NCBI GenBank assembly: GCA_905178155.1
Contig: CAJINV010000007.1
Coordinates: 2,585,730 to 2,649,150, forward strand
Origin: Amoebophrya sp. A120
Lineage: Eukaryota; Protista; Dinoflagellata
DNA: 63,421 bases
Direction of reading: 5' to 3'
Shown here: positions 9,779-53,816 of the stretch, piece by piece
Layout: every line of letters starts with the position of its first letter
How positions within the stretch are numbered: the first letter of the stretch is position 1
The notes under the pieces: generated by a model
The model's database searches: none
Seen by the model: the letters and a program-made list of their open reading frames with translations, nothing else
Told to the model about the DNA's origin: nothing
Made by a program: the position numbers and the translations under genes

Positions 9779-11466
9779 GGTGCGCGGGGGCGGGCCGCTT
9801 GTTCTATCTACTGTCGCTACAAAACTTGTCGTGGGTGCGTCATATGGGTTGGGGTATTGTGGTTGTAAAGACTGGCGATACTCCTGCGTTTCGATCAAAT
9901 GAAATAACGTAAGCGTAGGGCGATTTTCGAACAACTCTAGAAGAACATGGACACAAAAACATGATCAGCTACTTTTACTTATCTATGCGCCGCGAAATGA
10001 ATATTTTGGGAGGTGAGTATCACGCTAGAGCGAATGGGGGTGGGCGTGGGGCGAAAACGAATGACCTAGTAGTTGACGTTTCGTAGCCAGGGTGCTCAAG
10101 AGCCTAGCAGCGGTGGCTGCGGAATCAGCACAATAGGGGCCCTGAAAACAATTCGCAATCAAAGATCGATTGGCTACGCGGGGAAGCTTCAGCATCAGCT
10201 TGGAAAATAACTTGAATTCAATCATCTCTCCATTAAATTAAAATTTGACCCGATGAAAAAAAGCGAGCCGCTAGCACGGGGGCTTATCTAGTACCAGCAT
10301 CAACATCATGAAGCGCAGTTTCAATACAGGAGCGATCTCGACAACATTCACATTGATAGATGATTCCTCTCGATTGTTCTTTGTTCTTTCTTGCTTGATA
10401 TTCAAAAATAGGCCCATACACCTAAAGGAAGTTAAGAGTTAATGGCAGATTGACGGTAAAATCAATCTATCGTGCATCACAGACAGCTTCAAAAACGAGG
10501 ATAGGCCGATCCTCGGGCAGGAGCGCCAAGAACTTTACTGACTCACGACACATGGAGAGTTGTATTATCTTCCAAAACGATCCTCACTTTAATACGCAGT
10601 ATAGAAGGAGACTTTGACTTTTAAACTTTACCTTTAGCTTTTTCTTTTATTGAATCAAGGGACCAGAACCACCTCGTCGACTTGGAGCTGGATTTTGATC
10701 TCCACCCACAGGAAGACAGTTTGCTGCCCGCCAGAGTTGTGAGACGATCCATCTTCAATCTTCGTTTCGGTCCGCTGCCAAGATCAGGAAACAAACTTCC
10801 TGGCGCGTGGCAACAAAAAACTTGTAGTTTTATCGAGATCCAGATTGATCGGCTGCGACAGGAACACTCAGGATTCTTTTCGTTCGAGGAGGATTTTGGA
10901 CCACCGGCTGTTCGCGTAGTGCAACATGAACACGCGGCCACAGCTGCGAGTTTTGTGATGCTTCAACGTCGTGAACGAGAGAACACACGTTCTCGGCTTC
11001 ATTTTGGTTTTCATCATTGCTTGTTTTTCATTTTCGGCCGGGGGGAAGACCGTGTTTACATTGTCATGTCTCCCAGTGGGAGCGATGTTGCTGTAGGGAG
11101 GTGGGTCAGAAAAAATAAAGCGCGATAAGGGTCTACGAAGTCGCGATAACATAAGGGTAGTTTTAAAACTATGTATGACCGCCATGAAGATGTGTAAAGT
11201 AGTTTCGTCTTCAACCAAAAAGTGTATACACACGACACAAATAAGTCGTGCTGGCGCGGCTGGATGGAACAGGTACAGAGAACCTTAAGCACCGCAATTG
11301 GCATGATCGCCGTCCTAATGTTGAGGAGTGTGGAAGTGGAATCATGTACTGTAAGCCTACAGTTCCCGACGCCAGAAGTGAGACCATGCCCAGGAGCACC
11401 TTCTTCTCCGTCCCATTACAGCCTCCTGTGTGTCAAGAACGACCCCACGACGGGGACGTCGACTTG

Positions 11467-15110: not shown

Positions 15111-18100
15111 TCATATCGGTTGCGTCTGAATGATTCTCTCTGTGGTCCCGTCACGCTTTTTCCTGACCGTGATCACCTTCAGTTGCGGCGTCCCATTTGC
15201 CCCTTGCACAACTTGAGTGTACGTCTCTTCCGCGATGACGTCGGACCTCGAAGATGCTGCTCCGCCACTGTTACCAAATCCCCCACCAGACGAGCCAGGA
15301 CCACCGGCTCCCCCACCCATTCCGCCCCCAAACATGCTATTCAAATTCGCTCCGCCGCCGAACAGATTATTCAGGTTCGTCCCAGTGCCGTTTCCGAAGG
15401 ACTGAAACCTTTGCGCGTTTCGAAATACATCTTCCCCGTTGCCGTTCGATTGTTTCGTCAACACCTCAGCGGGAAACCACGCGTCCCCGACGCTTTCGAA
15501 CCTTAGCTTCACGGTGTTGTCCCGCGGATCCATCTTCACGACGGTTCCCGTCTTCCCCAGACACCGCGCGCGCAGCGCGTCGTTGTCGGTGGAAATTTTC
15601 TTCTGCCGGCAGTAGTGCTCCACCTGCTGCCGGGTGCCCAGGACGGAGAGTCGGTCGTTCAAACGGACGATGTTGGAGGGCGCTTCGTCCATGCCGTGGA
15701 ACATACGGTTGAACACGTCGTGGAACCTATCCTATGTAAAAACGTCCCCACCCCATAGTCAAGATGGGGTCTCGGCTAGACAAATCCACAAACTTTGGCT
15801 GTTTTGCATGACAAATTTCAGCTCGTATTGTAGTGCTGTTTGAGCTATTGCAGCATCACAGATCTAGTATATCATGCGGATTGGAGCAAGAGAAATTCCA
15901 AAACACGACTGGAAAACGCTTCTCATGGGGCTCCGCATGAGAAACATTTTCAGCATGCAGACTTGCATGACAACTCTGGGGTGGGGACGTTTTTACACAG
16001 GATAGAACCCGCCGCCGAACATCTGCTGGAACATCTTCTCCGCCTCCTCTGGCGTCATCTGCCGGGCGCCGTGCGGCATTCCGCCCGCGTGGTTCGGGTG
16101 GTGGAAACCGCCTTGCCCGGAAGGGTCCGCCCCGCTCCCGACTGATGTTGGTTGTATTAATTCAGTACGTATTTGTCCACTACTTCGTTTTTGCAAACGG
16201 CAAGAGAGGGCACGAGGACCATCAAATTTTTATTTTGCGCTAGCCCGTACGTATCAAGCGACTTCAACATCGTTATAAGCGACTTCAACAAGAGCAATTA
16301 CCAGATGAACAAGCATGCTGTTAGATGCTGTGCAACAACCTGACCCCTTTCCGCCGGCGGAAGGGGGGGGGGGCCCACCCACCTTCCGGCAAGGAGACCC
16401 GAAAGCCAAGCAGCCGGGGCCGGCACGCTCGCAACCCAGTCAGACGGCCGGGGTGGGGGGGTGCGCGCAAACGAAAGGCATAGCACCGCGCACGCGATCG
16501 ATGTATCGGCGCGAGTGCATTCTTTTGGCGGCGCGCGCTTCGCGCGCGCAAGTTTCGATCGTGCGTGAATTGCAAGGCAGAGCCAAAGCCGGAAAGCGCG
16601 CGCACGCACATGCGCCGCGACCAGATACAGCCAAAAAACCTAAGAACCTAGACGTCGCAAGCGTGCGCAAGACTGCAAGCGACCGGGCCCCGCTGCCGCG
16701 GCGGCCGGCAACGAACTGCATACCACGAACGAGAGCCACGCCGCGCTTGCCCGACGCGCATTCTTCGCCCTTTTTCCCGCGCGCCCTTAAGATGGGCCGG
16801 CCCCCAAACACAGGCCCCCACCCCCCACAGCTTATGAGGCACGCTGGAACCAAAACGACACCCCCCAGAATGCCCCGCCCTTGCGCGCGTAACCTTCGAC
16901 GCGCCCGCCCAAACCGAGAAAGGAGTCCACCGGGCGCAGCGTTGTGCGGGGGGATGCTATTTTCTCGCGCCCGGGGGGGGGACTGGGGCGGCGCGGCCCC
17001 TGCCGGCTCGGCGCCGGCCGCCCCGCCCGGTGCGGCGGCCGCATCTGGGTGCGTTGCAAGCCGGCAGCGCGGCGCCGTTCCACGGCCTTTTTTGTGTCGC
17101 GCCGCCACGCCGACCCAAGCAAACGTGGACCCGTGTGCGCGCCCCATTGCCGCACCGAACGCCCGGCAGCGCTCCATTGGCCATGCTAGCAGCCTCTTCT
17201 CCCGCAATCAATGAATCCTGTGCATGGTTTGGCCCCCCCGCGCGGCGAGGGCATCGGGGCAGGGGAGGTTGCCCTCCTCCCTCGCCGGCCCCACATGACT
17301 AGGCGGCGCGCGCTTTCGCTATCGCCGGCGACAAAAAGTATGAGGTAGCGGGGGGGCCCGTTTCTCCTGTCAAACGCTGCATGGGGGCAGGTGGCGCTGC
17401 GCGGGCGGGCGCTGCCCCCGCCATGTACTGGCTGAGGCTGGCAGGTCAGGGAGCGGGGCTGTGCGTGTGCTCCCTTGGCCGGCATTTTCTAGGGGCGCCC
17501 GCGGGTGGCTTAGTGTGATTTGGTTTGCGTGGCGCCTCATGTGGAGCAAAGTTAAATTAACGAAATGGGGTTCCGGCGCCACGAGCTAGCTGGCGAGCGC
17601 AGGCAGGGGGCTTTCCTCTGCGGCCCGTGACTTGGCCTGGCGCCTGCGCCTGCCCAGGAGGAAGGGAAACAAAGCAACGGGGCCGGCCTGTTTGCAGCGC
17701 CTTTCCCCCTTCCAACACCACACGCAACCACGCACCAGCGCGCCCGCCACGCCGCGTGGCGATCGAGGTGCTGCGCGCATTGGTTGGCCACAGGCAGGGG
17801 GCCCTCTGCGCCCAAAAGAATGCCGCGGTCGCGCCGCGTGTAGTCGCGGGAAACGCGCCGGCGCCCGGTTCCGGGCCGCTTGTGGCTTAATGTATGGCAA
17901 ACATTCCAGGGGCCGGACGCCCGCCGCGCAAACAGTTCAAGAGGCGCCCTCTTATGGCGGGATCGGTAATACCGACGTCGTGGCAATACCGATTTTTTTT
18001 TAATGCCGATGACGATTGCGGAAAGGGGGGGGGGGGTGCCACCCACCTGGAGGGGCGTCTACCCCCCTTTCCGCGGGCGGAAAGGGGTCAGGTTGTTGCA

Positions 18101-34545: not shown

Positions 34546-34768
34546 TTCCTGGAATCGGTTTTCGAAGGATTCCTGGAATGTAAAATGGATTCCATTCATC
34601 TTGGACGCCTCCCGGAATTGGTTTCAATCATGGAAGCACTAGAACACCCTGGCACCTCCTGGAATAGTAAAATGGACTCCTGGAATTGTAAAATGGATTC
34701 CATTCATCTTCTTGGGCGCCTGTTCCCGGAATTGGTTTGAATAGAAGCACTAGAACATCCTGGCGCCA
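34546..34768. repeat. Degenerate nested tandem duplication (~107-bp period) built on TCCTGGAAT..GTAAAATGGA subunits
   Basis: TCCTGGAAT(T)GTAAAATGGATTCCATTCATCTT..CCCGGAATTGGTTT..GAAGCACTAGAACA.CCTGGC occurs at ~34572-34655 and ~34678-34768, with extra TCCTGGAAT units nearby. Confidence 0.85.
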
Positions 34769-35055
34769 GCGTCGGCGGAGGAGGGTGAGTATGGGTAGAT
34801 GTTGTGAACATAACGTGACCGTTCGTCGCGCCGGGGTCATAGCGCAAAGTCGTGGAGGACGAGGAGGTATTGATTACTATAAACAAGCCGTGGTGAGAAA
34901 AATGAAGTATTATTTGCAGGAGCTTAGCAATCTTGTTTCGGTCGATGTAGCAGACCGACGTGAAATATGACGGACTCGATAAACTGGGCCAAAAAAGAGG
35001 AGACAGCCACGGAGCACCACCAGAGCAAGGACCATGGTCGTTGTTCGGACCTCCC

Positions 35056-38000
35056 TTAAGCTGCGGCCGCAGTCTCAATGAGGGGAATCGCTTCAACTGC
35101 TTCCTTGATCTTCTTGGCGGTCGAAGATGAGTCTTCTTCTTCCCCCCCTGTTGCTGTAACTGCAGCGGTCGCTGATGTTGGTGAACAAGTGGACGGTGCC
35201 GTCGAACACAGCTCCGACTGCTCTTCTACCTTGCTCTCAAGAGGTGTTGTCTTAATCACGACGACACTGCTGGCATCGGACGTTAATGTCTCAGTTCCGC
35301 ACAGCACGCTGGCTGTGTTTGCAGCTGCGCCTGCTGGTGGGACGAGTTGCTCAGAAGTTGTACAGGTTCTGCCTGCACCAAAATCCTGCCCAGCTGGAAC
35401 GTTATCCTCCACGGACAAGTTTGAGGTGAGCGCATTGATGCTGTCCGTGGTTTTCTCGGAGTTCGAGGTGCTGTCTGCGTCGGAGTTCTCCGAGACCGCG
35501 GACGCCGCCGGAGACGACAAATTACTGGTCGAATGAGCGCCCTCGACCTCTACCTTCGACCGCTTCGGCTCCGGCTCTGCATCGACGGGGGATTTCGATG
35601 CTGTGTTTGTCGTTGTAGCTACGCCGTCAGATGACAGTCCTCCTGCTGCTGCTGCAACCACGACATCGGAAGTGGATTTTTCCTCGGAAGAGTTTGTGTT
35701 CTCGGTTTCTTTCTGCTGTTGCTCACTTGCGGCGGCAAGAGCCCGCCCGGCGAGTAGAGGAGCGCCGGGGACAGGACGGACGATCATCATACCTGTTTTT
35801 TGATCGTTTCTTGTGTGTTTCGTTTGGCTGCACGCAAGATCTTTGCGAGTTTGTCATGCGGAATTTCGTATAAATCTAGCTCGTCTACGTAGTATGTTTA
35901 ACGAACAGCAACTAAAAAGAGAGAAAATTGAGAAAACTTCTTTCTACTCATGTTGTCGCAGCCCACGCCCATGTCTGTTGACGGCGACTCGGCGACGTTG
36001 AAGTTCAAAAAGTCGGAGCAAACGGCGTTCAACTCCACGTCCACCTCCGCGTCGCCGCTGCCCTTGGCCGCTCGGTGCTTGTAGATCCGGTCGTTACACC
36101 AGGCGACGAGGGATTCGTTGCTTTGTTTTTCGAAAATCCCATCGCATCCGATAATCAGATAGTTGTCGTCGCCGGAAAGGTGAGTTACCTGTCATGGTTC
36201 GATACAAGAATTATCGTCATGATCGTCCTTTTTCATTTTCTGCAACTACAATCATTGAACTTTAAAATTTTATTGTTTGTGACATAAATCGCGATCGCGA
36301 AGATCAATCTGCATGAAGACTCCAAAACTGTCCATATACCGAGACGTCCGGCACGACGCAGATCCGCTGCGCCTCTGGCGCGAGTGCTTTGTCCTTGTAG
36401 ATGAGGTCGCCCATGGCTCGGCTCAGGTTCAAGTTTGAGTCCACCCGGCCCTCTTCGGACACCGTGCCGCCGGACGCGAGGATGCGTTCCCGCTCGGACG
36501 GGTTGGTCGGTTTGTGATCGAAGGAAAGCGGCACGCCGGCCCCCTGTCTGCACAGAACCGCCCGGGAGTCCCCTATCAATCGCAAAAGTGTCTGGGTCTG
36601 GAAACTTGTGATGCTAAAATGTGAATGATGGAAACAGTTCCGAATGCAACCCAGCATTACAACTTTAGAGAACGCTTTCTCATAGGCAATCCGCATGAGA
36701 AACTGCGTTTTTGCATGTACAAAAGAGGCTGCGACTTTTGTTGGTTATGCAATGCAGATTTTCATTTCTAGCTATGGAAAGCTAGCATTACAAGTTTCAA
36801 CCTTCCAGACCCAGACATTTTTGCAGTTCATATCCCCGGCGTTCGCGCAAAAAGCGACCATCTGGTCCATCTTGTCGTCGTATTGGAGCAGGACGACGTT
36901 CGCCGTGCAGCCCTGGGATTCCGGGTTAATGCCCGACGGGCCGTCGTCGAAGAGACCCCCGTATGCATTGCAAATATGTCTGGGTCTGGAAAAGTGCCAG
37001 GTTTGTCATGCATACGTAGCGCGACCCATGACGCCTGCAATGCATGACCTAGCATCACAGATTTTCAAAACGCTTGTTTCTGGTGACTAAGCTGCATGAG
37101 AAATGTTGCCCTCTCTGTGTCGCACAAACCGGACCCCTATTGCTGGCGACGCAGCACAGATTTTTTGAGAATCCAAAGACAGCATCACAAGTTGTATCCT
37201 TCCAGACCCAGACACATTTGCACTGGATACCCCGGCAAGCAGGTCCTCCACCTTCAGGTCGTCGTCGTCATCGTCGTCGTCATCGGGGTTAAGACCTGGT
37301 TTTTTTTCTTGAAACAGCTTAACCAAGCTGCAGAGCGGACGAACAACATTGATAGCATACGATGTGGCAATGAAGCACGACGAGCAGCACCCAGGCGGGC
37401 TTCATTCCAGTTCGTCATAATGGCAGCAGGAGGCAGGAATAGATCTACTCAAGTACAACTATGCGCTACTAGGCAAGGCAAGAACTTAATTCATATCCAT
37501 ACCTTTTTTCGGCGGCTGAGGGCCGATGAAGAACTCGTCCCCACTTGAGGAGTCGCTGTCTTCCTCCTTCTTTGCTTTCGCTTCGGCAGCTTCGGTTTTG
37601 TTTTTGTTCATGACAAAAATGTCGTCAATATCGTCGTCGTCCTGTTCCAAAGAGGTTCGGTTCGTCAGTTCGTCGATGCTTTTCGCGAAGTCGAGACCAG
37701 TTTTGTCAAGCGGAAGTTGTTCTTGCCCACGACTACCACCTGGAGATTTCGCGTTTTTCTCCCTTGGTTCTTTATCTTTCGCACCAGCACTCCCGGGTGA
37801 CTTCTCCTCTTCCGATGAGGTCGGCAGTTTCCCATTCGGCGGCATGGCCGGGCCAATCATGCCGTTTGGTGGCATCGCCGGGCCGATGATCGCCTTGTTT
37901 TCATTCTCTTTATCTTTTGGCGATTTGGAGGAGCTTGTTGCCGGCCCGTTGCCGACTTCGATGATTGGACCGTTGGTGGTAGGCCTTGTTTCGCCGTTCT

Positions 38001-39257
38001 TCTGTGGTGATACTGATAGTGACTCGGATTCCTCTATTTTTATGTCTACAACATCTTTCTTCTTTTTCTTGTCCTCTAACGCAATCACCTGTGCCGGGGG
38101 CATGCCGGTGACCGCCGGGGGTGTTTTGATACCGTCCTCATCTTCCTCGTCGGCTCCGTACTCTAGGTAATTGGCGTTCAGAATGTCTTCCTCATCCAGA
38201 ACTTGCTGGTCGCGCTGTAAAAGGACAAGGAGATCATGAGGTTGAGTGTAGATTGATCATATATCGAGGATTTATTGCTAGTCGCATACTTACAACAACA
38301 ACTTAGCACGACCATGTTGGATTGGATATTGAAAATGTTCATCTGATACATAATACACAGACACGTCGACGCAACGGTCTGTTATGCTTATGAACAATAC
38401 CATGCAAGAAAAAAAGCGGAAGAGTAGAGGATCACATCCACACGTAAATAAAACGCGCAGGCATAGGTCGTGGTGGTCTTTTACCAGTAATTGCTGCAGT
38501 ATGCTGCCTCGATGTCTGACGTCGTCATCGTCGTCTTTTTTTTCCTTCTCCGCCTTTGCGCCGATGATTCGCAACTCCTTTCGCCCTTCTGCGGAGTCGA
38601 GGTACTTATCCATCGCGATGAACGCGGCTCGGAGGGCTGGATTGATGTTGTTGTTTGTCATGCACAATAGGCAAGTAGTGCCATAATGCAACCTGCTTCT
38701 ACCTTTCAGTAGCAGGATCACGCAGTCAAATCTTCAATGCGAAAGCGAGGACAAGCACAATAAGAAAAGCTCTTACAGATCTACAGCAACGTCCCTTTAT
38801 ACCTTCCTGGTAGTTCTGGTCACCAAAGGCCTCTTGGCTCTTGAGAATTTCGGGAAATTTTTGCGCAACCAGCTGCGCTACCGCGGCACCGCCGTGGCCG
38901 TCGAAGACGGCGAACAGTGCGAGGTTGTCCGCGAAGTCCGGGAGATGAATGTGCGCATCCTCCATTGAACGACGCCAACCTGAGAAGGAGAATGAGACTC
39001 GATCGAGGATGAATAACTATCACGCTGAAAAGACCAAGTACTTTTTGCGCGACGAGAGGAAACGTTATTTGGCGCCTCAGCATTGGTTTGTCATGCCTGA
39101 AAAGTAGAAGCATCGGGTGTGGGTCGTTCTTATCCACTTGCAATTCTTTTCTACCTTGCATCGCACTGAAGCCGAACCGCCATCTCCCGCCTTTTCCCTG
39201 CCCCTCAGCGGTTTCCTTCTCCTTGTTGGCCGCCGGGAGATAGATGCTTTGACCCAT
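35056..39257 (-). CDS. Protein phosphatase 2C (PPM1G-like, with a large acidic insert), 9 exons
   Basis: Starts MG. Motifs assembled across junctions: AMQG/WRRSMEDAH, FAVFDGHGG, GCTANVV, ANAG/DSRAVL, DHKP, LNLSRAMGD, IIGCDGIFE, GCDNMS/MMIV. GT-AG introns: 38980-39154, 38637-38802, 38215-38484, 37296-37502, 36189-36339, 35793-35947. Two non-canonical TIR introns are also present. Confidence 0.93.
36574..36832. mobile_element. Introner element 2 (non-canonical intron ~36573-36836, GG-AG register)
   Basis: 30-bp TIR TATSAAYYGCAAAARTGTCTGGGTCTGGAA (26/30). Direct repeat TCCCC at 36569-36573 and 36833-36837. Removal restores ANAGDSR. Confidence 0.93.
36962..37229. mobile_element. Introner element 3 (non-canonical intron ~36961-37233; no AG acceptor in any register)
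   Basis: 30-bp TIR TATSCAKTGCAAATRTGTCTGGGTCTGGAA (27/30). Direct repeat CCCCG at 36957-36961 and 37230-37234. Removal gives LLAG-GLFDD..GCTANVV in frame. Confidence 0.92.
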
Positions 39258-41698
39258 GGTTTTGGAATAGAAAACAAAAATGTAGTAAAGCAATAGCAAA
39301 TAAATTCAAACCGATGCCGGCCTCGCGATGATATCTGAAATCATATAAACTAACAAGCTTGACACCTCGCCAAATTAGATACCAGAAAATAAAACGCAGG
39401 AAAAATGTCGCGAAAATTTTTCAGGCTACGGTAGCATATTAGCGTAAACAAGTACAATAATCGCTAGCAAGAACAGACAAAGATATGCAAGACGAAACTA
39501 GTAGTGAAGTCCAAATCGCTTATCCTTGTGTGTCAATCTCAATTTAAATCTAATTGTGTTTTTTGTCCTGTCGTCGGGATGTTTGGAAAAACGAATTGTG
39601 CTTCTGCTCTAAACAGGCAGGCTGTACTACTTAATCGATCCGCATGGGCATGCCGACCATTCTGACCAACATAATACAGTCAGAGAAACAACAAGACAAC
39701 TTGAAATCGATCTTCGTCTTCATTAGAGAGGATATATCAAAGCACCGGAAACACACAACTATGGAAAATGGGAAGAAAAACTTCCTCCTTGAGCAAAAAC
39801 ATTTGGGAGAGGAGGGGCATGACAGGGATCAAGATCGACGGAAAGTGATCAAAGCACTAGAGCCCTGCTCTCGCTCCAAGTTAAAAACATTGCTGCGACA
39901 CTTCTTAATATTGATCATCAAACTCGCAAACGCGGTCTTTGAAATTGGATCATCGAGCGAATGCGTTCATGTCTCTGCCATGTTTGTGAGGCCAAGCAAC
40001 CGCAGATTCCGATTGATGAATGCGGATCCATACATTGCCATATTAGACTCAACCAAGGTCCAGGGAAAGAGGCCATTTCTGATCAGATCATCACTTCCAC
40101 AAATTTTCGTTTCTTGTGCTACGCCTTACTTTTTTGAGGCGCGCGTGCTATGCAACTACTGTTTTGCAAAACTCGAACACGAGGAACATCAACATCCTTC
40201 ATCAACACACGACAAGCACCCTGGCGCAGAACTACGTAACTTCGTGCTGATTTTTCCGAATGATGAAACGAACAGCCACTTCCCTTTCGGTTCATTTCTT
40301 GTTCGACGCCCTCGCAATAACTGATTAGCAGCCGAGTCGCTACACCAACATCATCGGTGCTGCAGCGGTTTTCCATAAATGGCAAAAGGCATTTACGTAA
40401 GTTTTGGGAAACAGCTGCTTCAACAAAACTTACTCGCTTGACTAAACCCGAATGAATTTACTCGCCGGTTCGTCCTTCTCAGCGAAGATAAAAGCCAGCA
40501 CACGATCAACAATTGCTACTTTTTGTTTTTTTTTCTCATATACAAAAAAAAAATAAACCACGAATTGAAATTCAGCTGCGTACTGCTTGTTCTACGAACG
40601 AGAATAAGAATACGGCATCAAAACATCAAAGGGAAAAACAAATTGCGAAACTCAACCACACACTGCTCCTCCGCATTTACGATAAGCACAAAGTGAAGCA
40701 AAATTGGAATTGGCTTGGTTCATAAAAACTTCACGTTGGTTCGATCGTCCAGAGGCGAAATTATAGATGAAAACGAAAAGGCATTTGTATTGAGTTGCTG
40801 GGATCCTCCCGATCCCCTTCTGTCCGACATAGACAACAACGACAGCCAACAAACAATCCAGAAGTTGTCACCCTTTATTCTAATATCTTGGAAATACGAA
40901 AACCTGTAGTTGGATTCGCTCCACCTGTGATAGTCTTAGTAACGACCATGTACACACGTTATTGATGGCTACTGCTTTAGGACACTACAGCAAGAAGGTC
41001 GTGATGCGCAGTATTGAATGAAGCTTTTCGTCGTGCGTTAATGAACGATGGGAACCTCAATGGCACAGCGGTACTGCAGAATGGAAGTTTTGGCTGTTCC
41101 TCTTCTTTTTGTGAAAAGCAAAAAAGGCTACGCAAAAGTGGATAAAATATTGTCATTATGTTCTAGATGAATGCCTTCGCGTTTACTGGTGTTGATGTGG
41201 CGTGGCTACAGCAACATCTCGCTGGTGTAGCGTTAGCATTTTCATTTTCTCCTCTGAGGCATGCGCATGGCAATTTCAATATCAAAAGGATTCAGCAGCA
41301 CTCTCTTCAAGCGTAATTCATAATCGAAGTTCTTGTGCAACTCCATATTTATTAGGAAGGCGATTTCGTAAACGTACGCATTTCTTTTTATCTTCTACGT
41401 TACTCTAGAAAAGCGCTTTGAGTCTACGGCTTCGTGTGAACGAATGGTTTTTTGATTGATATTTACTTTACCTTTACCAGGCTGGAGCATTGTATTGCAG
41501 GATACTTAACTGTTTCATATTGACGGCTGGCCAATGATCATGCTTCGAATTCGATTCCGAGTCACGATCACGATTAAATTATGACATTGACAGGTCACTT
41601 TCTTTAGTATACAGGGTTAGGATTTAGATTTTTCGAATCTAGTGGGGCTTGTTTCATATGGAAATCGCAATCGACTCAACAGAGGAGCCACTAATATT

Positions 41699-44600
41699 TT
41701 ACTCATGTTCCGGCACGGGCGGCATGTTGGCTAAGTCAGGGCTGGAATGAAAGTCCGGCGATCGTGACACGGACGTGTCCCGGCTTCTCGGATCCCGGAG
41801 CGTTGGTCGGCACAAAGCCTGTGGCAGCGACCCCCGGAGCGAGACTCGGTGGTTCACTCGGTACTCTCGTAACGCTTTCGCGGTCACGTTGTGCACCACC
41901 TGTCTGAACCGATCGCACGCGTGGTGTTCGCCGCATTGCACTTGAAACAAATCTTGCTGATCGGCGTCGGTCACACCGTTCTTCACAAGACCCGTTTCTT
42001 GCTGTAACTGCTGTTCCAGCCGACGAAGCTGCGCGGACACGGAATCTTCTTGTTCGTTATTTTCGACGTTTGGAGATGAAGATACGCCAGAAGGAGCAGA
42101 CCCATTTTGATTCTCCCCTGGTACTGTAATTTGATCGTGGTCAACAAGGTCGGGCGACTCCCGACCCGGTTCAATCCCGAACAAGCTCGCAGAAGATCTC
42201 CCGTTCATCAAGCCAAATTGGTCGGTCTGGTTCGTCGTGTCGTGATGTGAACTGTTGTTCAGCACGGGTTGCACTGCTAAACTGCTGTCGTTCCCGTTGT
42301 TGTTCTGGACCAGGTGATTCGCTAAAGCCTCTTCAATCGCGGAGCTGGTCAATGCCCGCGTTGCGATCTGCTCCCCTTCCGTGAGCGACGGTGCTGCTGG
42401 AGCTTCTACATCAATCGGTGGAGCGTGCGTGAAATCAAACGGGTAGGAAAGAAGTCGGCGGTAGTTTTCTTTTTGCAGGTTATGATCAGGTGGTGGTTGT
42501 CCTGCAGTTCCCGTTGCGAGTCCGCTGCTCGCCGTCGTGGTCATCCGGGGCTGCAACAGTGGGGACGTGGAAGCCGACAACCGGGGAGACGGGAGTTGCA
42601 GGGAGCTCTTTTTCGCTGGGAGAGACAAAACCGGGACCACGGGCGGCTGCCGCGGACTGGGCGGGAGGGTGGTGCCTTAATATCAGGAGAAGATTTTTCG
42701 TAGATACGCAAGTCTACTAGTAAGAACGTCATGTCTATTTCCTAAGTCGATCCTTATGTTCGCCTCTAGCTCGAGGCAAATTTCATTTTCGGAAGGGGAA
42801 AGCATGGCAGCAGCCCTAGTATGTTCATCCAGCAGCTCTACGCAGAAACAGAATGCAAGTGGAAATAAAAGGAGGCGCAAAAATTCCGAACACATACCAC
42901 TGGTCTTTGCCGGCGGTACCACACCCAGGTTCTTTCCTCCCCCCGTACTGTTCCTGCTCTGTTCCTCAGCACGACCTCCAGGTGGGTTCTGCAACTGCGG
43001 CCTGGGGCTCACCGCCGGACTGTTTTGCACTACTCGAGGGGCTAGCTGCGTCGTGCTGATCAGCCGCTCGGAAACGACTCGGCCCTGGTCCGGCCTGGGG
43101 GATTTGGAAACCACGCGCTCCGATACCACACGAGACGCGGTCCAGATACCGTTCAACTGTCATTTTGTGGTTCGAACTTTCGAAAAAGATGAGACGGAAA
43201 AGTGAGTACTAGAGTCTGTGATGCAAAACAACAGATGCAAATTCAGTTGTGCACATCAACACCGTAAACTTAAGTACCACCGATGGGTGCCTCTCATCCC
43301 CTCCTGCGCCGGGAACAACACTGTTTTGAGGCGGTCGCGGGCTGACGCCCTGCTGTGAAGCGCTGTCACGCGGTGTGGCAGCGGGCCAGGGGGATGTCGT
43401 TCTAGATGCCGGCATCGTGGTCGTAGCACCACCACCAGCCGGAGCGGACAACAGAGGCGGCTGCGTCAACGGTGCCGATCCGATCGTTGAGGAGCTGCCC
43501 CCTCCTGTTCGCCTCTGCTTCTGGGCTGTATCCTGCACCTGGGCTGGCGGACTTAACAGTGGCTGTGTGCTCTTTCTGGACAAGGAAGCAGCGGCTGCCT
43601 CGCGCTTCTGTGTCTGTTCCGCGGGGGCTGTGATTATAAACCCAGCGAAAATACGTGTTTTGTTCCATTTGAAAAGATGGCGTGCAATCTAGCCGAGAAA
43701 AGAGTGGTCCTGGCACAGGTACTAACTCAGGTCAAACTCCAAGAAAGAGAATCAATTTATCAAATTCAAAATGAAAAAGAGTAGAAGCATTCTTGTAGTA
43801 CGTACTCACCTTTCTGCTCCCCCGGTTCCTTGATTTTCAACGAGGACCGAGATCCCTCTAAACGTTTGCAGTTCGGCCAGTCCTGGTACTCCGAATGCAC
43901 TAACGGTGGCACCGCCGTCTGCGGCGCGGCGGGCTGCGCAGACTCTTCTGCAGCAAAAGGAATCGCTTGCACTTCCGGAGCCGCCGCTGGGGGGTCGACG
44001 TGTACAGAAGTCGTGCTTTCTCTTGCTGCTAGCTCCTTCTTCGCAGCTTCAGTTATTTTTTTCTCAACTTTCTCTACCTCTCCGGCTGGAGAAGGAGATG
44101 AAGCCGCGGACATCAAAGTACTACTTTTATTCTCCTGCTTCGTCTTTCTTTGCTTCGCCGGACCGCCAGTGTTGGATGACGTGCTGCTTCTCGCTGCACT
44201 CTTCGCCGACGATCGTTTTCCAGTCTCGCTTTTCTTCCCTAGAGCCGCAGTAGCCTTCACGTTCGGTTTTTTGGTCGCAGAGGCCCTCCGTAATGCGCGG
44301 GATCGACTGCCTTGCTGGGAGAGAGAATTGCTGTGCTCTTCCGTCTCCCCGCTGGACATGATCGTCTCTAACGGTGGCGGCTGTCTCGGTTTGCTCGTGC
44401 GCGTGTTGCGGAAAAGTTTTTGCAGGTTCGGTTTTTTAATGCTGCCGTCGGAATTTGATGTTTTGTTGCCTGCACTGTCGATATTGTTTGCTCTCGCCGG
44501 AGCCGTGTTCCGGGCATTGGATAGGCCGGTCGGGTTGGTCCCTACATTTAAAACATTTTCGCCCACCACGACGTCCGTCTCTTCTTCCAACGACCCCGCA

Positions 44601-47163
44601 CTGTAGTTCGCCCGACCGATGTGGCAGGTGGGCGGCGCGGACGCGCGTAGCCGGATCTGGTCCTGGCGCATTTGGTCTTCGGTCATGGGAGCGTCTTTGT
44701 CCAAATCCTCGAGCACAGCGCCAAGATTAGCTAAATCTTCGTTGTTAGGCACGGCAGCCGGAGCGTCTTCCAGGATGGTGCCGGAGTTGATGGCCTAGTG
44801 TGGAAAATTGCACTTCTCTTCGGAGCGTCAAAATATTCCCATTCAGCTGTTCAATATGATGCACACGATCATCAACGAGCATGCCACAGCAAGTCCAATT
44901 CGCACACTACGCCGCAGTGGAAACTAGTACAGTTACAAATACAAATACTCCTTACCTCCTCAGCCGCGTCTTGCTGTTCTCCCTCTTCAGAGCCCTTACT
45001 CGTGGTTTTCCGAATGAAAGATGTTTGCATTTCCGTCGTCCGCCCCGTCTTCAGCGCCCGTCCGGTGGCCTGCGAGCCTCGGGTTGATCCACCACGGATG
45101 TCGATCGAACTGCGCGCGGAACGATGGGAAAGGGTACCTGCAGGAGTAGCGGGTAGGTTCGAGCGTGAGACGCAGCCGGCGAAATTTCCAATGTTCATAC
45201 CGAACAAAGGTTCATGTTGCAAGGTAGGTCCATGTTAAGCGACATAGACCTGAATATAGTAAATCTACCAAGCTGCAATAGTACCTGGCAGTATATCCTG
45301 CACAGTGCTGGCCTCGTTTTTCATCTTCATCTGCATCAATTCTCCTTCCAAATCCGCAATCCGCTGCTTCAGCTGGACCAGTTCCAGTTTCAGCTCCGCG
45401 TTTTCCTTCAAAAGTGTCAGATTTTCCTCATCCTGCTGCTGAATTTGCGATCGCATCTCGTTCGCCTCGTTCTCCAGGTGCATCATGTCCTCCGGAGTGA
45501 GCGGCGGCACGACGGCGGTGCCATTTTCGGTAGTCAAAACCAGGTTGGAATTCAGGACAACACCTTCATGAATTTTCGTGGTCAAGGAATGGCTCAGAGT
45601 CAGACATACCCGATGCTATTACATGAAGCACACCGAATCAAACTCATCATGCCCAAGTTTCAAAAAAAATCAGCTCGTCCACCGCCTTGCTCCAATCCCC
45701 AGCATTTTGTATGAATACCTTCCCCGTTCAGTTTCTCTCTGCAGTATTGCAGGTATTTGAGCCGGCCGCGCAACTCCGCAACCCGGGCCACCTGGTTTGC
45801 GTATTTCTGTTCGGTGCGTTCGTGTTTGTGCACCAATTCCTCCATTTGTCGTTCGAATTTCTGCTCGATTTTCTGCTTGATAGGAATTTTCGCTTCCCGG
45901 GTCCGTTCCAGCACTTCCAAGTCATGCCGCACCTTCAACGCGTGCGCGTCTTGGCGACGGACCTGAAAAAGTTGATGTCATGTGCTTTATTTTGCAGCAA
46001 GAATGTTCTACTTCTGCAAGTGCCATGCACTGTTCTGTTTCGAGCACGTCGATTTCGGCGAAGTACGCTGCTCTCGTCATCTTCATCATTCATCGATACC
46101 TCCTTGCTCGTCGCATTAATCTCCCGATCCAGTTCCCTCTGCGCGCGGTTCAGACTCCGGCCCCGTTCCTGTTCCTGGAGTTGCAGGTCCCGAATCTGCG
46201 CTATGGGATTCTCAAATGTTACATTCTCAACTTTTACAAACATGATTTGTCATGCAAATTTGCCACCAAGCTCGCCACCATTAAGGTGCTTCGCATGACA
46301 AATCTCCGAAGTGGCTAAATAGCATGTAAATCTGTGCCAAATCTGTAATGCAAGAGGCGCAAGATTCCCCCATTCATTTTTGCCGTTCTTGCATTACAAA
46401 TTCATGTAACAGTTGAGAATGTAACATTTGAGAACGCCATATGCGCTTGGTGCGAGGCCTCGTTGAGCCTACGTTCCTTCTCCAGCATCAGTAAGTGGTT
46501 TACGAGCTCATCCGGCACCAACGCCCGCACGTTGCGGGGCGTGCCACTGCCGGACCGGGGCGTTTTGTTGTTGGTCATGCCGCGCGACCGGGTCGTGCCG
46601 CTTCCTGGTTGTTGGTTCAATATCCGCGTATTCGGGTGGTCGTAGTTTTCCTTCGGTGCGGCCATCGTGTGTGGCGTGGGTGAAACAGAGGCTGGAAGGC
46701 TGTATATCGATTTGAACGCTTTCGGCAACTTTTTGGAATGCTTCTGGCGACTTTTTGCGGACACCATCCTAGTGATGGAGTTCCAGGGGAGTTTACGCCA
46801 ACAGATTGATCATGATACACAAATGAAAGCTCAACGTGATCATCATCTCCATCTTCAACATCATCCATCTTTGGGAATTCTTTACTTAGTTTCGCCGCTG
46901 CCCCGGCCGGAGAGCAAGCAGTTGGTCTGGAAGGGGTCTGTGGGTGTTGGGGCCGCCGTACTGCAGTTGGAAGCCGGATTGAATTTGTTCATCCCTGGCT
47001 GGTGCTGCCCTCGCGCGGAATGCATTTTATTTCCTCCTGACGAGGTCTTTTTGTTTTTCCTTTCGTTTTGCGAAGATGACTGCATCTTCGCGGGCTTGGG
47101 TGGGGTCCGGGCGAAATGCATCTCCCCCGCCGCGGACACCTGACCCGCGACGGCCCGAATCAT
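41699..47163 (-). CDS. Large hypothetical protein with N-terminal coiled coils and a S/P/T/Q-rich low-complexity C-terminus, ~11 exons
   Basis: ORF pieces join in frame through GT-AG introns (e.g. 46769-46884, 45963-46099, 45564-45718, with further junctions near 45284/45138, 44955/44795, 43809/43628, 43278/43157, 42897/42676) and one TIR intron. Heptad segments such as LKENAELKLELVQLKQRIADLEGEL. No domain recognised; both ends are approximate. Confidence 0.7.
46202..46441. mobile_element. Introner element 4 (non-canonical intron ~46201-46445, CG-AG register)
   Basis: 37-bp TIR TATGG(GA/CG)TTCTCAAATGTTACATTCTCAACT(T/G)TTACA (34/37). Direct repeat TGCGC at 46197-46201 and 46442-46446. Removal gives SHQA-Q-IRDLQ in frame. 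Confidence 0.92.
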
Positions 47164-47910
47164 TCTGATCAAAACTGGTACCCGCCTTCACCTTCTTTCG
47201 TGCTGCGGAGGTGTCTTTGTTCCAAGACGTTGCTAATTTAAGTTAATTGTTGTAGTTTCTTGGATTATAATCCAACACGACCACATCACAGATTCACATT
47301 GATTGCACCAGGTTGATGTTGTGAGGCCTTTTCTATGCCTCGTTTGGTACACTTCTCAACAACAAGTGCACGACCTTGTTCCGGAAGATGATCAAGAGAA
47401 CCAAACCAAGAACGAAAACCAAGACGACAGACACGCAATGGGATCAATAACTTAAGCACGTTTTCGCAGATGAAACGTACATCAGCTGCAAGAAGTAGAA
47501 CAAAGGCGGCTTTTGTTGCGAAACAGAGAGCAAAAAGTGGTGCCGCGCTTTCGCGCGTGATGTTGTCTTGTCTGCCGAAAGCAACAGAGAACACCTTTCT
47601 TTAGCCATGTTCTGCAATCAACATCGCTAGGACGATGAGGAGAACTCAATCATCCACCCAACTTCTATCTGAAGAAGTGTAGAAAACTCGTTACTTCTCT
47701 GCGCAAATGCCCTAATAAAGGCCGACAGTGACAGATAACTTTTCATCCAACTGCTCCTCATGGGGCTGTTGGGCCTGCGACGTGTTTGCTTTTCAGATGT
47801 TGAGCACTCCAAACACAACAGTACTAGTACTGAAAGAAAAACCACTTGCGTGCAGGTATTTCATGTTCTTGAGTACATGTTCACGAAAAATGGGATCGCT
47901 GTCCTCTTCA

Positions 47911-48258
47911 TCATGCTTTCCCGACTATAAACACGCTCCCTGAGTACGGTTGACTGCGAGTATCGTTTCCCGAAAACCTGACTTCCGTTGGCACCTTGTT
48001 GTTTTCTTCGCCACAACTGCCTCCCCCCGCGCGCTTGCATTCGCTTTCGAATTCTGCCACCGCTTTTCGCATGGTGTTTGTTGTACTGCCAAAGTGTGAA
48101 TTGAAATCCGGGGACGCGTCGGGGATTTTACCAGGTCCGGCCTTGCGAAAAAGGTTTGCAATTTTCTGCCTGCCGCCCGGGTGCCGGTCGATAAAGCCGG
48201 TCACGTCCACAAGGTACCCGTTCAGACGGACGATGACGGGGGATGTGGTCGATGCCAT
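47911..48258 (-). CDS. Small cytochrome b5-like heme-binding domain protein
   Basis: VRLNGYLVDVTGFIDRHPGG..DASPDFNSH matches the b5 YDVT.F..HPGG and DAT..F..H pattern. Confidence 0.75.
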   Translation of the reverse strand: MASTTSPVIVRLNGYLVDVTGFIDRHPGGRQKIANLFRKAGPGKIPDASPDFNSHFGSTTNTMRKAVAEFESECKRAGGGSCGEENNKVPTEVRFSGNDTRSQPYSGSVFIVGKA

Positions 48259-49088
48259 GCGATTACGAGTATGGTCGTGCGTTTCTAAGTGCGTACCCTT
48301 AAACTTCTACCCGTGGCCACACAAATGAGCATGTGTTACATACTCTACTGACAGAATCTTCAGCAAATATGTAGCCGTAATTTACCTATTCCTATTTTTT
48401 CTTCTAGAAAATTCAAATTGTACTCGACACAAGTACTTACTGAGCATGATTTCTGAGTCTGACTTCATTTTCGACTTCGCTGAAAATAACAAGATAAAGG
48501 GGTGACGGAACTTCTCAAGTTTGCGTTTCGGTCGGACGAACTCAACTTCTAGTGCGAAAAATCGTGCCACGAGACCCTGCGGCATTTCCCGCGGACCGGG
48601 ATTTCTCAAATCTATCAGTGAGGACGTTTTTGATCCCATTTGCATGCGCGGGCACTAAAAAACATCACATGGAAGCAGAAAAAGTCATATCCGTCGAACA
48701 CTCACTGCTGAACATTTTTGACATCAAACACGCACAGCTGTAGCGCGGGTGCAGGGGTATGATGTACGTCTCCACCTAGACCTACATCCACCACGACCAA
48801 GTACTTACTCGAGAAAAAAGATGCGCCAGTAGCCTAGTATGCGTTAAAGGTTCAATTTGTTTAATTGCTTCACATCGAGCGAGTCATGTTGAGAAGGAGC
48901 TTGTCCGTGCGTTTGAGTCATCCTCGTCTTTCTCATATGATCAAGTTGCAGAAGAGGACATGAGCACCATCATGCGTTTATTTTCTGCAGCAATCTTCCT
49001 CCCGTTCCAGAAGTACCTAAACAATTAAACGAGTGGACGATCTTTCATTGCACCATGTTGATCATCTTGAGAAACCTTACTTCTCTCC

Positions 49089-52000
49089 TCAACTTGCCCT
49101 CGGACTGTTTACCAGCCGATAGTAATCCGCGGTCGATGAGCCCCCTCCACCTGCAGTTCCGGAGCGTGTCGAGATTGTGGTCACATCTTCAGGCCCACCA
49201 CCTCCAAAGATCCTCGTGCTCGTTGCGCTAAACACCGGTCCCAAGGATGGTCTCTCTAGAACTTGCTGTGAATGTGATTCCGACGCCGCTGCGTTCATTA
49301 CACCAGAACCAGTCAACGTCACCGCATGTGGTCTCCTGTTCGACGCCATTCCCCTTCCTCCCCCCTGCTTCGCCACGGCTTTGCGGAACGACTTTTCGCT
49401 CTGGAAGAGGTCGATCATACCCGGGCCGTGTGCCGCGCCCACACAGACCAACACCAATCTGCGCTTCGGCGCGGCGTTCAACCCGATCTCCAGATCTGTC
49501 ACCGCTTCCGGCGCCCCGTCGGTGGTACTGGACGCGGATTCCTCGTCGGAAATCGTAGTGGGTGCGAACCTTGTTTCTTCCAAGTAGCGCAGCACGTTGT
49601 AGCACATGAACTGGTTGCGCTGCGTCAGCATAATGTGCACGTACGACGGGATCACGAGAAAGAGAAACAGCGTCACCATCACGTCCGCGGACAGCAGCGT
49701 GTTGAAAAAATTCTGGAGCGGTCCCTCCTCGGCGGAATCGCTCAGTGACGGCGCCGACGTTGTCTGGTCTGGTAGTTCTCCATTGGGAGAACCCGTTGAC
49801 ATCGCAGCTTTTCTTGTCTTCGCAGATGATGAACCACTGTCGCTCATTAGCGACAGCAAGACGTAGTTGTAAATCGCGAAGGCCAAGATTGAAATCACCC
49901 AGGACACAAACTGGCAGGCGACCACCAGCGCGAGACACGCGAGCAAGGGTGCGCGGCCCAACGTCGTCAACAGCAGACCATACATGTCAACGGAATACGT
50001 GGGGTACAGGCAGTACTGGAACAGCCACCGCGGCACCGCGAGCCAGAAGAGCAGCGCGTAAAACACGTTCTGGAGGGGGGCTTTTAGGAACCTCGTGATA
50101 AAATTCGTCCCCAGCACCTCGTCGGAACTGTCGACGAGGAGCAGCGGTCGTTTCAGCAGTTCCGCCACCCGGCCCGCGTTGAGGAATTCCTGGCCGGCCC
50201 GGATCCCGAACAAGTCCGCGACGAAGTACAGCACCGACGCGGGCCACAGCGCGATAGCGAAGGCGAGCTGCCGCTTACGGTTCTCCTTCGCGCGCTGCTG
50301 GCGTTTTTGCTTCTCCTTCTGGTACTGCTTGATATTGACGACGTCCCAGGAGGTCTTGGGTAGCGTGCCGGACGTAGTTGTTTCTGGTTTCAAATTGACC
50401 ATTTTCACCGCGGATAAGTCAAACTTAGTATTGTTCGCGATTTGGAGGAGAAGTTGGGAGTCCGGGAGCGAAAAGCACGGGATTTCGGGATTCTCCGTGC
50501 GCCAAGCGGTGGATTTGCAAAAAAGCAAGTCGTGGACCACGTCGCTGCGCTTTCTCGGTAAGGGCTTGGGAAAACTCGCAAAGACGAAGTCTGTGTCGAG
50601 GTTTGGCTGAGCAGGTCGATTTTGGCTCTGTGGTCCTGGTTCTGCTGTTGATAGTGTAGTCCCATGATCTACTTTCGCTTTTGGTATGGGTGAGAAGTCT
50701 AGCACCTTGTTTCTCTTTTGCTGCTCCAAACTGTTACACCCGGAGTCTGTGTCTTCTTCACACTGTAAGAGCAATACGCCCTTCGCCCCGGCGCTCTCCA
50801 GAGAGTGTACCACAAGTCTCGGATGGAGCTTGGAACCGGGGAAGGCGACGACAAAACTGTTGGCAAGGGTGGTCAAGACGCGCGCGGTTCTTTCGACTGG
50901 GCGGTCGAAATAGGAGACGGAGGAGGCGTAGGCTGTTTTGGATTCAAATTTTACATGAAGAGCACAACAAATTTTTTGTCACTGTACATCACAGTAGGTG
51001 GAAACAAATGCATCTCTTCATCAAGCCGATGTAATACATCGAAGCATAACTACAACTACATCAACTGGGGAAAGATCATCATTCTTCTATACTGCTCCGA
51101 TAGAATGGCATGTTCCTCTGCCCCTCATCCGCTCCCCATTGCTGCAGGGCCTGCTCCAATTCCGGTGGCCAAAACGTCAGCTTCGCAGGTTTCGTGTCAA
51201 ACGCAGTCTCTTTTGGCAAGAGCAAATTCCACTCCGCAACAGGGAGGTTCATGACGAATCGCCTCGCGGTGCCGGAACCATCCTCCAACTGCTCAAACTG
51301 AACTCTATCGGTCAGGAGCTGGTGGTTTTGCGCGTGTTCTTGAGAGGCAGCAGCACCAGTAGATCCTGCTGATGAGGTGTAGAAGTCCTTCGGTGCAGCT
51401 GCTACGGAAGTTTGCATGGGTGCAGCAGCAGCTGCTGGCAGCGCTGCAGAAGTTGTCGAATTTGCATTCAGTTTCAGCTCTCTCTTCTCGACCACATCCT
51501 GCATGTCCGCTTGGGTTGACAACCCGAGATACCGCTTCACGTCTAACTCGACCGCTATGATGTCCGGTTGTAGCTGCTCAATGACGTCCAACACGTCCAA
51601 GGCGCTCACCGCTAGGCCGTGGTTGCTACCGAAAATCACCAAGTCCGCTTCGCCGTCCGCGACCCGCATCGGGGCCGAAGCGCCGTAGGGCCAAGCGAAC
51701 GAATTGCTCGAAGTTCTTGTCGCAACATTTTGCCGATTTTGCTGTTCTTGTTCCACCAGAGCGAGGTTTGTGTCTGTCAGCAGCGTCCTTGTTGCGGCCG
51801 ATTCCAGCTGGCTCGGCGACTCATCGCGCCAATTTGGCGGCTTGTGGTCCGGCGACTTCTCTAATTGTTGTATCGGTGTCGTGAGTTGCGGCTTTAATTT
51901 TTTCTCGTCGCTCATGCTAGAGTGTTGGAGCAATACGTTGCTCGCGGCTTCAACTCTCGTCCCCGGAGCTCCTCCTGTATTACTACCTCGTTGTGGTCCT

Positions 52001-53816
52001 CCTGTTTGTAACGGTGCTGTTGTACTAGTAGTCGCATTTTCATCACCATTTCCGCCAAACACCCTCCGCCATATCCAGCCGAACATTCCGCATCCAGACA
52101 CCAAGTACCACGCCACGTCGCAGAGCGATGGCGAGCTCGTGATAAAACTGTACTTCGACTGTTGTGTCTTGCTTCTCCTCTCCTCAATCACCGAAGCGGA
52201 AAATTGCTTCTCCAATCTCTTCGCGACCGACGTGGTACCACTACCGCTGGCGCCACTAAATGATAAGCTGCTGGCCGTGCGGAAGGACCGGAGCTTTTCC
52301 AATTTCGAGGAAACCCGCAGCCGCACGAAAAACCGCCACAGGATGATGGAAGCAAGAAAAAGAGGCCACCAGTAGTCATTGTCGCTGATCAGGCATTCCG
52401 GAACTAGGATTTCTTGGCTCGACGGTGGATGGTCTTTTGTTGATGTTTCGTCGAGCTGTCTTTGATGTTCCGGCGCTGTTTCTTCAGCGGCCAATGTTAT
52501 ATTATCATCATCTGACACCGCCCGCTCTGCAGCCGTTGGAACATCAAGTTCTGCACCTTCACCCATCGGCTTGGTCGCTTGTTTCGCAACCTCCTCCGGC
52601 TCACCTAGTAGCTGCTTCGGCAAGTAGCTAGATAGCTCCACGGCTCGCCACGCTGCAGCGCGGATCGGCTGCCGCGAGCTCCATTTCACTGAAGATTTTG
52701 TACTTGTGGATCGGATTCCAAAAAGATATTCTATTTCTTTTGCTGCATCAGGGGCGGCGCTGCGAGTAGACTGCTCAAGCAAAATCCTGCGAGACGCAGA
52801 ACTGGCACCTCCAGGTGCAGGACTTGCAGTAGGAGGTCCAATGGCGGAAGAGCCTCCTGGTTGTGCAGAGTATGACTCTACTAATTCACGTTGTTTTTTC
52901 TCGTCCAGCAAATTTCCCTTTTCCTTCGCCAGTTCTTCCTGCAGATCTGCGTTGTTCCACACCGCAATAGACAGTGGCAAACCCAAAATCGGCAACCCAC
53001 AGTACACCTGGTAAAACTGCACACCTACTGTTTTAGGGAAGACGATCATATCAAAAGTAAAAATGTCTGGGTCTGGAAACTTGTGATGCTGGGTGGCGTG
53101 TCATGACGAGGCTACAAATGCTGGCTCAGCATGACAAGTTTCTGAGCTCCTAGGTGTTGCCTATTCTGCATGACAAACTGCGGCTCTGCAGCACAGAAAG
53201 AGAAAAACGGAGCTCTTGTCTACCGTGCATGACAGATTTAGGAGTCATGCCAGGCAAGCATGACAAACATGAATTCTTCCAGACCCAGACATTTTTACAG
53301 TTGATAGATCAAAGACGCCAGCAATCCGATGATGAGCAGATCCAGAATGATCAGTTTCTTTCCGCGCAAAAACAACAACTTCTTCGCGTCCATCTCTTTC
53401 CCGGCAAAGGTCTGCGTCGCGTCCACATGCCGCTGGTCGTAAAGCGAAAAGGACCCATCCGACCTACGGACTGGCCTCAGAAGATGCATCGGGGATGGAG
53501 CTTGCTGGTTGTGGTTCTTTGTCTTTGATGAAGCGGACGTGATAATCAATGCGTTTCCTCCGCCAATAATACGAGAAGATGACTCTTGCCCTTGCAGCGA
53601 CGACGTTTTGTTCAGCATGGTGAAGGTGATTGGATTCATACTGAAAGATTTTGATATTTTCCTCGTCGGTGGAATAGAAGTATCACTAGCGCTATCTTCT
53701 TTCACGGGCGAGTTTGTGCGTGATGAAAAGTTAGAGTTAGCTGCGTTCTGTCCTCGGTCTGCAGCGGGCGTAAGCAGCGGGACCTCCGCATCCGCCCAGC
53801 TGCGACTGCGAAACAT
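49089..53816 (-). CDS. TraB/TRABD-family multi-pass membrane protein, 3 exons
   Basis: Exons 53816-53311, 53047-51093 and 50896-49089 are in frame (TIR intron plus GT-AG intron 50897-51092). TraB blocks: IFGSNH..DVLDVIEQLQPDIIAVELDVKRY, EFLNAGRVAELLKRPLLLVD, LTQRNQFM, VLVCVGAAHGPGM. Several hydrophobic helices. Confidence 0.8.
53049..53306. mobile_element. Introner element 5 (non-canonical intron ~53048-53310; neither GT nor AG in any register)
   Basis: 30-bp TIR TATCAA(AA/CT)GTAAAAATGTCTGGGTCTGGAA (28/30), the same family as elements 2 and 3. Direct repeat GATCA at 53044-53048 and 53307-53311. Removal gives GLLASLI-VFPKT in frame. Confidence 0.93.

Follow-up and report, generated by a model that had tools for sequence, protein, structure and literature searches.

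The introners of Amoebophrya sp. A120 (Dinoflagellata) are non-canonical introns of about 240 nt that belong to many families, are bounded by inverted repeats that begin with TAT, seven variable bases and at least three A, and are flanked by short direct repeats of 3-5 nt (PMC7789003). Both the agent that moves these introners and the agent that removes them from RNA are treated as open questions in print (PMC7789003). Here we report the analysis of five such elements, E1 to E5, in a 63,421-nt stretch of A120 contig CAJINV010000007.1 (assembly GCA_905178155.1, positions 2,585,730 to 2,649,150 of the forward strand; the window hereafter), together with 347 elements from related public contigs, and of a short internal word, GCAWBASARRT, that recurs in them. 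The elements are of a known kind; the internal code is real and apparently undescribed. Our statements on published systems refer to the portions of each source that were covered.

In Gozashti et al. 2025 (PMC12130899), the A120 introner family 38 is listed as Ginger-like; it has a 5-bp target-site duplication (TSD), TA/TA termini and homology to an integrase-like putative transposase. A 5-bp TSD is also made by hAT5 (PMC12730594), and IS3EU/GingerRoot elements combine TA..TA termini with TSDs that are usually 6 bp long (PMC10045372). Subterminal arrays are described for the eukaryotic transposons Tol2, Tag1, Ac, Hermes and piggyBat (PMC11707139), and the TnsB sites of Tn7-like elements follow a periodic spacing of ~10 bp, established by experiment for VchCAST (PMC10201428). 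The window elements are like the A120 introners in their TAT-N7-A-run inverted repeat, their direct repeat, their removal from RNA often without GT-AG ends, and their division into families.

Results

An internal word common to unrelated introner families

When the window was searched for inverted ends with a direct repeat on either side, five elements were found (Table 1), all with TAT…ATA ends and a perfect 5-bp TSD. Each lies within a minus-strand open reading frame (ORF), and excision of the element with one TSD leaves an open frame. The word GCATBASAR, noticed as a multi-copy motif in the initial annotation of this DNA, is found at the positions claimed there and occurs 33 times in the window, compared with a mean of 6.6 and a maximum of 15 in 100 dinucleotide shuffles. 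The five elements (1302 bp) hold 21 of these copies, or 16.1 per kb, versus 12 copies, or 0.19 per kb, in the other 62.1 kb. Copies in both orientations had been ascribed to every element; this holds for E2, E3, E4 and E5 but not for E1, whose copies face one way only, all antisense to the host gene. The 16:5 strand split inside the window elements arises because the five insertions happen to face one way. The interiors had further been described as non-alignable, which is correct between family groups but not for E2, E3 and E5, whose TIRs (terminal inverted repeats) are of one type and whose interiors align pairwise at 62-66% over 104-163 nt (E 5e-7 to 7e-5). The interiors of E1 and E4 match those of the other window elements only over 12-36 nt, and the window thus holds three unrelated interior types (E1; E2/E3/E5; E4).

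The TIR pattern of E2, E3 and E5 retrieved at least 162 loci from the public contigs JACKZZ01, whose elements are 67-88% identical to those of the window (best 40 by BLAST hit length). From 391 candidates, for which TAT ends were a search criterion, 33 were dropped (longer than 400 bp, TSD below 4/5, or TIR below 17/25) along with six duplicates, leaving 352 elements, the window's five included, with a bias toward the bait family E2/E3/E5. These elements measure 110-325 bp, have TIRs of about 25-37 bp and a 5-bp TSD, which is perfect in 197 of 239 candidates chosen on the TIR alone, and form 17 clusters of at least three members in which all five window elements are placed. The sole TIR agreement across families, according to the end profile of the 352 elements, is TAT-N7-AAAA.

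The strict motif is present in 347 of the 352 elements at 14.2 per kb, and the element interiors hold 1207 copies, against 19.0 (at most 27) in 30 shuffles. Its background density is 0.63 per kb in 452 predicted non-element GT-AG introns and 0.12 per kb in predicted exons, and masked intergenic DNA has three copies over 11.6 kb; the parity with background that the initial annotation had named as grounds for dropping the motif is therefore not what was found. The gene model behind these predictions recovered 14 of 15 RNA-supported introns, which are the same introns that trained its splice matrices. Site density is equal in the 18 elements located in predicted non-coding DNA and the 196 in exons. 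A family-weighted matrix extends the word to WGCAWBASARRT, with G, C, A, A and A nearly fixed and a middle base that is never A. In reverse complement the word is similar to the mammalian Sox-Oct composite element, probably by coincidence though with a hint of a two-part site, and the likeness of its core to palindromes bound by apicomplexan AP2 factors is probably coincidental as well.

Independence of transcription direction

The host strand was called for 331 of the 352 elements, local and contig-based calls agreeing in 106 of 106 cases. Their copies comprise 528 in sense and 602 in antisense orientation; sense copies prevail in 128 elements and antisense copies in 140, and family polarity runs with transcription in 151 elements and against it in 158. 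The copies of the E1 family almost all face one way, and its insertions lie both ways (7 and 8). The word shows no dependence on the direction of transcription, and the strand bias proposed as a check in the initial annotation amounts to no sense excess.

These counts bear on the explanation that the word is a branch point or a site for an RNA-binding protein, present on both strands and so enabling splicing in either orientation. Such a role would suit the UnAC core of the word, and was suggested by the window, where 10 of 12 copies outside elements lie on the sense strand and three of the 15 RNA-supported GT-AG introns hold a copy. The bias is not replicated in the 452 predicted introns (41 sense versus 34 antisense copies), where there is no preference near the 3' end either, and on this larger set the candidate was rejected, neither the sense bias nor the near-3' position of a spliceosomal branch point being found. 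A sense-strand site is missing from 26 of the 331 elements and an antisense one from 22, and E1 is skipped in RNA-like contigs without any sense-strand copy. An Rfam search covering five sources gave no match. Taken together, the lack of a sense excess, the equal conservation of the core on both strands (see below) and the splicing of E1 without a sense copy argue against a branch point or other RNA signal, a role to which we give hardly any credence.

Selective conservation of the core

Divergence was measured against the majority of the three nearest relatives. Core bases differ at 315 of 8706 positions (3.6%) and other interior bases at 4802 of 35,671 (13.5%), a comparison that is tilted slightly toward conservation by the choice of sites on the family consensus; the middle base of the motif differs at 13.7% and the inner TIR at 5.6%. 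Sense cores (145/3909) and antisense cores (157/4230) diverge equally, at 3.71%. In all 15 families of at least four members the motif columns are more conserved than other interior columns, in one of them marginally. Core divergence rises from 3.4% in 249 copies whose TSD is perfect to 4.9% in 42 whose TSD has drifted (p 0.017), and other interior bases rise by about the same absolute step, from 13.2 to 14.5%. This test, a weak one, suggests that the core is constrained in the replicating lineage before an element inserts and that it decays thereafter.

Passive inheritance would provide another account, in which the families descend from, or exchange pieces with, one ancestor whose interior contained a 31-bp repeat. 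It is in keeping with the alignable interiors of E2, E3 and E5 and with BLAST matches of 14-44 nt that exist across groups; BLAST with the motif masked in the consensuses proved too stringent to help, as it also lost known relatives. The account is largely refuted by the core, which diverges 3.7-fold more slowly than either its neighbours or the middle base of the motif, and it also fails to explain why spacers between copies are unrelated while their length is kept, so that we consider it most unlikely.

Spacing in whole helical turns

On the basis of a common TIR or interior, fifteen families were combined into ten groups. Spacing, the other check that had been proposed, is regular: same-strand (head-to-tail) pairs of copies 30-33 bp apart number 16, in nine of the ten groups, where 2.3 are expected; none of 20,000 random placements gave as many, even when the best 4-bp window was allowed. 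A further 15 spacings of 30-33 bp occur among 23 unclustered elements. The pair spacers listed differ between groups, and only their length is kept. In E1 the pairs are 33 and 30 bp apart, with the last copy 40 bp from the element end; in E3 the copy at 37035 lies 32 bp from that at 37003, and the copy at 37182 follows that at 37151 by 31 bp, the distance that also separates the E5 copies at 53227 and 53258. Adjacent divergent copies are 9, 9, 28, 38, 39, 40, 41, 42, 51, 60 and 63 bp apart (Rayleigh p 0.003 at 10.5 bp), and convergent neighbours recur at 24 and 41-42 bp. Of 17 ends, four have the first outward copy at 40-41 bp and nine at 48-52 bp, the exceptions being 63, 76, 88 and 98 bp. 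This spacing in whole helical turns is helical phasing, which is new here.

The geometry also bears on the proposal, made in the initial annotation, that the copies are pairing elements that fold the intron: inverted copies would base-pair in the pre-mRNA and extend or stabilise a hairpin that joins the splice sites. Outward copies at opposite ends are inverted repeats of each other, and short hairpins could arise from convergent pairs at 24 bp or divergent pairs at 9 bp. However, the dominant head-to-tail geometry cannot pair, two family groups have essentially one-way copies, the five sites of E1 all face one way and yet E1 is skipped, and the TIRs already pair (predicted probability 0.85). 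Moreover, inverted copies agree at the middle base no more often than pairs taken at random (0.33-0.41 vs 0.38), and that base, as free as background, gives no sign of covariation. The proposal thus found little support, and we judge pairing very unlikely; RNA-level roles as a whole, pairing and branch point together, are improbable.

The companion proposal, that the copies are DNA-level protein-binding sites, fared better, gaining from independence of transcription, selective conservation and helical-phase spacing; the transposase role attached to it is one that the sequence may only suggest. Orientation independence, three-turn spacers kept in length and end distances one turn apart would fit a protein that reads double-stranded DNA.

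Window elements, host genes and RNA skipping

Table 1. Positions of introners, motif copies and a further inverted-repeat element (window coordinates)
Feature	Position	Strand	Description	TSD	Host	Strict copies (+/-)
E1	15728..16004	.	277-bp TAT…ATA introner	GAACC (15723-15727 and 16005-16009)	minus-strand gene with DnaJ domain	4/0
E1 motif	15806..15973	+	15806, 15853, 15886 (variant GCAAGAGAA), 15935, 15965
E2	36574..36832	.	259-bp introner	TCCCC	minus-strand PP2C gene	3/1
E2 motif	36606..36793		36606-36614 (-); 36654, 36693, 36749 (variant), 36785 (+)
E3	36962..37229	.	268-bp introner	CCCCG	PP2C gene of E2	3/1
E3 motif	37003..37190		37003-37011 (-), 37035-37043 (-, variant); 37052, 37094, 37151 (weak), 37182 (+)
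E4	46202..46441	.	240-bp introner, other TIR family	TGCGC	minus-strand ORF	2/2
E4 motif	46247..46399		46247-46255 (-), 46293 (+), 46343-46351 (-), 46391 (+)
E5	53049..53306	.	258-bp introner, TIR as in E2 and E3	GATCA	minus-strand gene, weak TraB/PrgY match below Pfam cut-off	4/1
E5 motif	53081..53266		53081-53089 (-); 53129, 53168, 53227, 53258 (+)
Single motif copies	35851..39096	-	35851, 38655, 39088		inside RNA-supported GT-AG introns
Second TIR element	16323-18108		1.8 kb, GC-rich, 47-bp inverted arms (94%), TTA/TAA ends	near-perfect 5-bp flanking repeat	2085-nt GT-AG intron of the DnaJ gene

Removal of the elements was followed in contigs of sequencing runs that were guessed to be RNA, all from one sample, and was seen among the joints listed for E1, E2 and E3, with no joints of E4 and E5 among them. 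Contigs X3, X5 and X6 skip E1 as 282 nt (277+5), with GT-AG readable at the joint, unlike X1, where no joint skipping E1 was found. X3 and X4 skip E2 as 264 nt (259+5) and E3 as 273 nt (268+5), in both cases with skip ends that are not GT-AG. The raw-read runs X9 and X10 gave matches to TIR pieces only. Over window positions 15624-16287 the summed contig depth of run X1 is 15,250, compared with ~24 elsewhere, a figure that is not a copy number, and because of it we take the E1 family to be very abundant. The base composition of the TSDs, checked for target preference, revealed none. Canonical donors in the window are mostly GTA-N, which the TAT ends of the elements mimic. The three single copies in GT-AG introns are likely remains of decayed elements or chance occurrences.

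The second TIR element, which does not have TAT ends, contains no motif copy and matches nothing in Pfam; among the TIR families of the retrieved loci, its arm is similar to the GTGCACAAC-type one. At window positions 1243-1918 there is a GC-rich array of imperfect direct repeats of 23-84 bp, some spaced at 289 bp, with no motif copy. Nearly all long ORFs and all RNA-supported introns of the window lie on the minus strand, and co-oriented gene blocks are likewise known for Amoebophrya.

Outside the window, nine elements longer than 400 bp look like nested or extended copies, and the one that was read contains no ORF of at least 250 aa. One locus (L022, 505-1608) has a 1.1-kb TAT…ATA element in which a normal left part of 220 bp is followed by a GC-rich, internally inverted low-complexity extension. 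The TIR pattern had 0 matches in viral and prokaryote collections, and in BLAST against the loci the 40 longest hits include none of the window genes.

Discussion

With moderate confidence, we interpret the five elements as introners of the Amoebophrya A120 type that are non-autonomous cut-and-paste transposons, with GCAWBASARRT as a putative subterminal array to which a single transposase, mobilising all families, would bind. Since TAT-N7-AAAA and GCAWBASARRT are all that the families have in common, a single transposase may read both. In the mechanism that we propose, the protein would bind motif pairs on one face of the helix, and once bound would help to pair the two element ends. Only copies with intact sites would keep transposing, and the word would be kept in replicating lineages and decay after insertion; splicing would rely on the element ends and not on the GCAWBASARRT word. 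Candidate enzymes are the integrase-like protein that A120 family 38 may suggest or a hAT5-like enzyme.

The word might instead be bound on DNA by a host-encoded protein, acting either as an architectural cofactor of transposition, as IHF, HU and HMGB proteins do, or as a mark set at the time of transcription that lets a modified spliceosome remove the element. This would explain one word across families with different inner TIRs, as well as the phasing. The 452 predicted ordinary introns hold 75 copies, on both strands, versus about 15 expected, a 5-fold excess that such a protein would also explain. But the excess is clustered: 15 of these introns have two sites and three have three, against 5.3 and 0.3 expected, four of 14 spacings are 31 or 33 bp, and one intron contains a recognisable relic of an element. 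Clustered sites, 31- and 33-bp spacings and the relic make the excess look like decayed elements. The apparent decay of core bases after insertion also speaks against a host protein, as do the similar density and conservation in exonic and non-coding insertions, although the numbers are small. Farhat et al. (2021) found no transposase in A120 and rejected a general mobilisation by transposases (PMC7789003), which keeps a host factor alive. On balance we hold this alternative to be possible yet rather unlikely. A bolder version, which we find doubtful, is that one host-encoded DNA-binding protein reads the phased word for tens of thousands of introners, moving the families in place of family-specific transposases and perhaps flagging them for splicing without GT-AG.

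Resemblance to elements was found in 114 of 566 predicted GT-AG introns. In one locus (L018), near position 10182 of its element-free sequence, a decayed E4-family element forms the start of a predicted GT-AG intron and provides the GTAT donor with its TAT end; this intron likely shows a route from introner to canonical intron.

Several observations weigh against a transposase-read array, beginning with the report of Farhat et al. and the excess of copies in ordinary introns. No autonomous element or transposase was found in the window or in the at least 162 loci, the ORFs of the latter not having been scanned with Pfam. Sites are spread over the whole element instead of hugging its ends, and in group B no copy lies within 75 bp of either end. 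The other recurring spacings, 18, 20, 24, 39 and 48-49 bp, do not all fit 10.5 bp; the phasing tests were picked after the data had been seen, and the ten groups may have common ancestry. The test of post-insertion decay is weak (42 and 18 elements), the total motif count leans slightly to antisense, and motif bases are predicted to pair with another copy at a probability of 0.38 (90 elements, no control), which would favour pairing in RNA.

If a single phased word is used across families, this implies one mobilising machine and not family-specific ones. The word could serve as bait in a pull-down, and as a signature by which the autonomous partner might be found and decayed introners told apart from ordinary introns. 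It also separates a DNA-level code in the interior from a splicing code that is likely in the ends.

We found no description of the motif in the literature covered, and it is apparently new. No internal introner motif is described in the covered parts of PMC7789003, PMC12130899, PMC9860276 and PMC11282704, on which figures and two further supplements could bear. The sequence GCATGACAA does not occur in the text of PMC12130899 that was covered or in 12 of its 14 supplementary files, and a literature search with the four commonest motif 9-mers gave no introner paper among the matches listed.

Compared with the A120 introners as described, in an account whose covered part (PMC7789003) includes no common internal motif or spacing rule, the elements here add the motif, TIRs of about 25-37 bp and a TSD of 5 bp. 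Family 38 and the present elements are both DNA elements with TIRs, a 5-bp TSD and TA/TA termini; compared by description, family 38 is about 808 bp long with ORF homology (PMC12130899), whereas our elements are 110-325 bp long and have none. The 5-bp TSD is common to hAT5 (PMC12730594). The TA..TA termini are common to IS3EU/GingerRoot (PMC10045372), to which we do not assign the elements because their TSD is 5 bp, as reflected in skips of element length plus five, and not 6 bp. To neither hAT5 nor IS3EU/GingerRoot are the elements tied by a transposase.

With the subterminal transposase arrays (PMC11707139, PMC10201428) the word has in common short repeated sites inside the ends, unequal between the two ends and spaced at the helical pitch. 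The likeness extends to a repeated, conserved motif inside the TIRs, to end distance and phasing (group B excepted for end distance), and to independence of transcription. Unlike those arrays, one 9-11-bp word is common to ten groups whose inner TIRs differ, occurs in both orientations all through the element, begins 40-52 bp inside the end, and consists of putative sites known from sequence in elements that double as introns.

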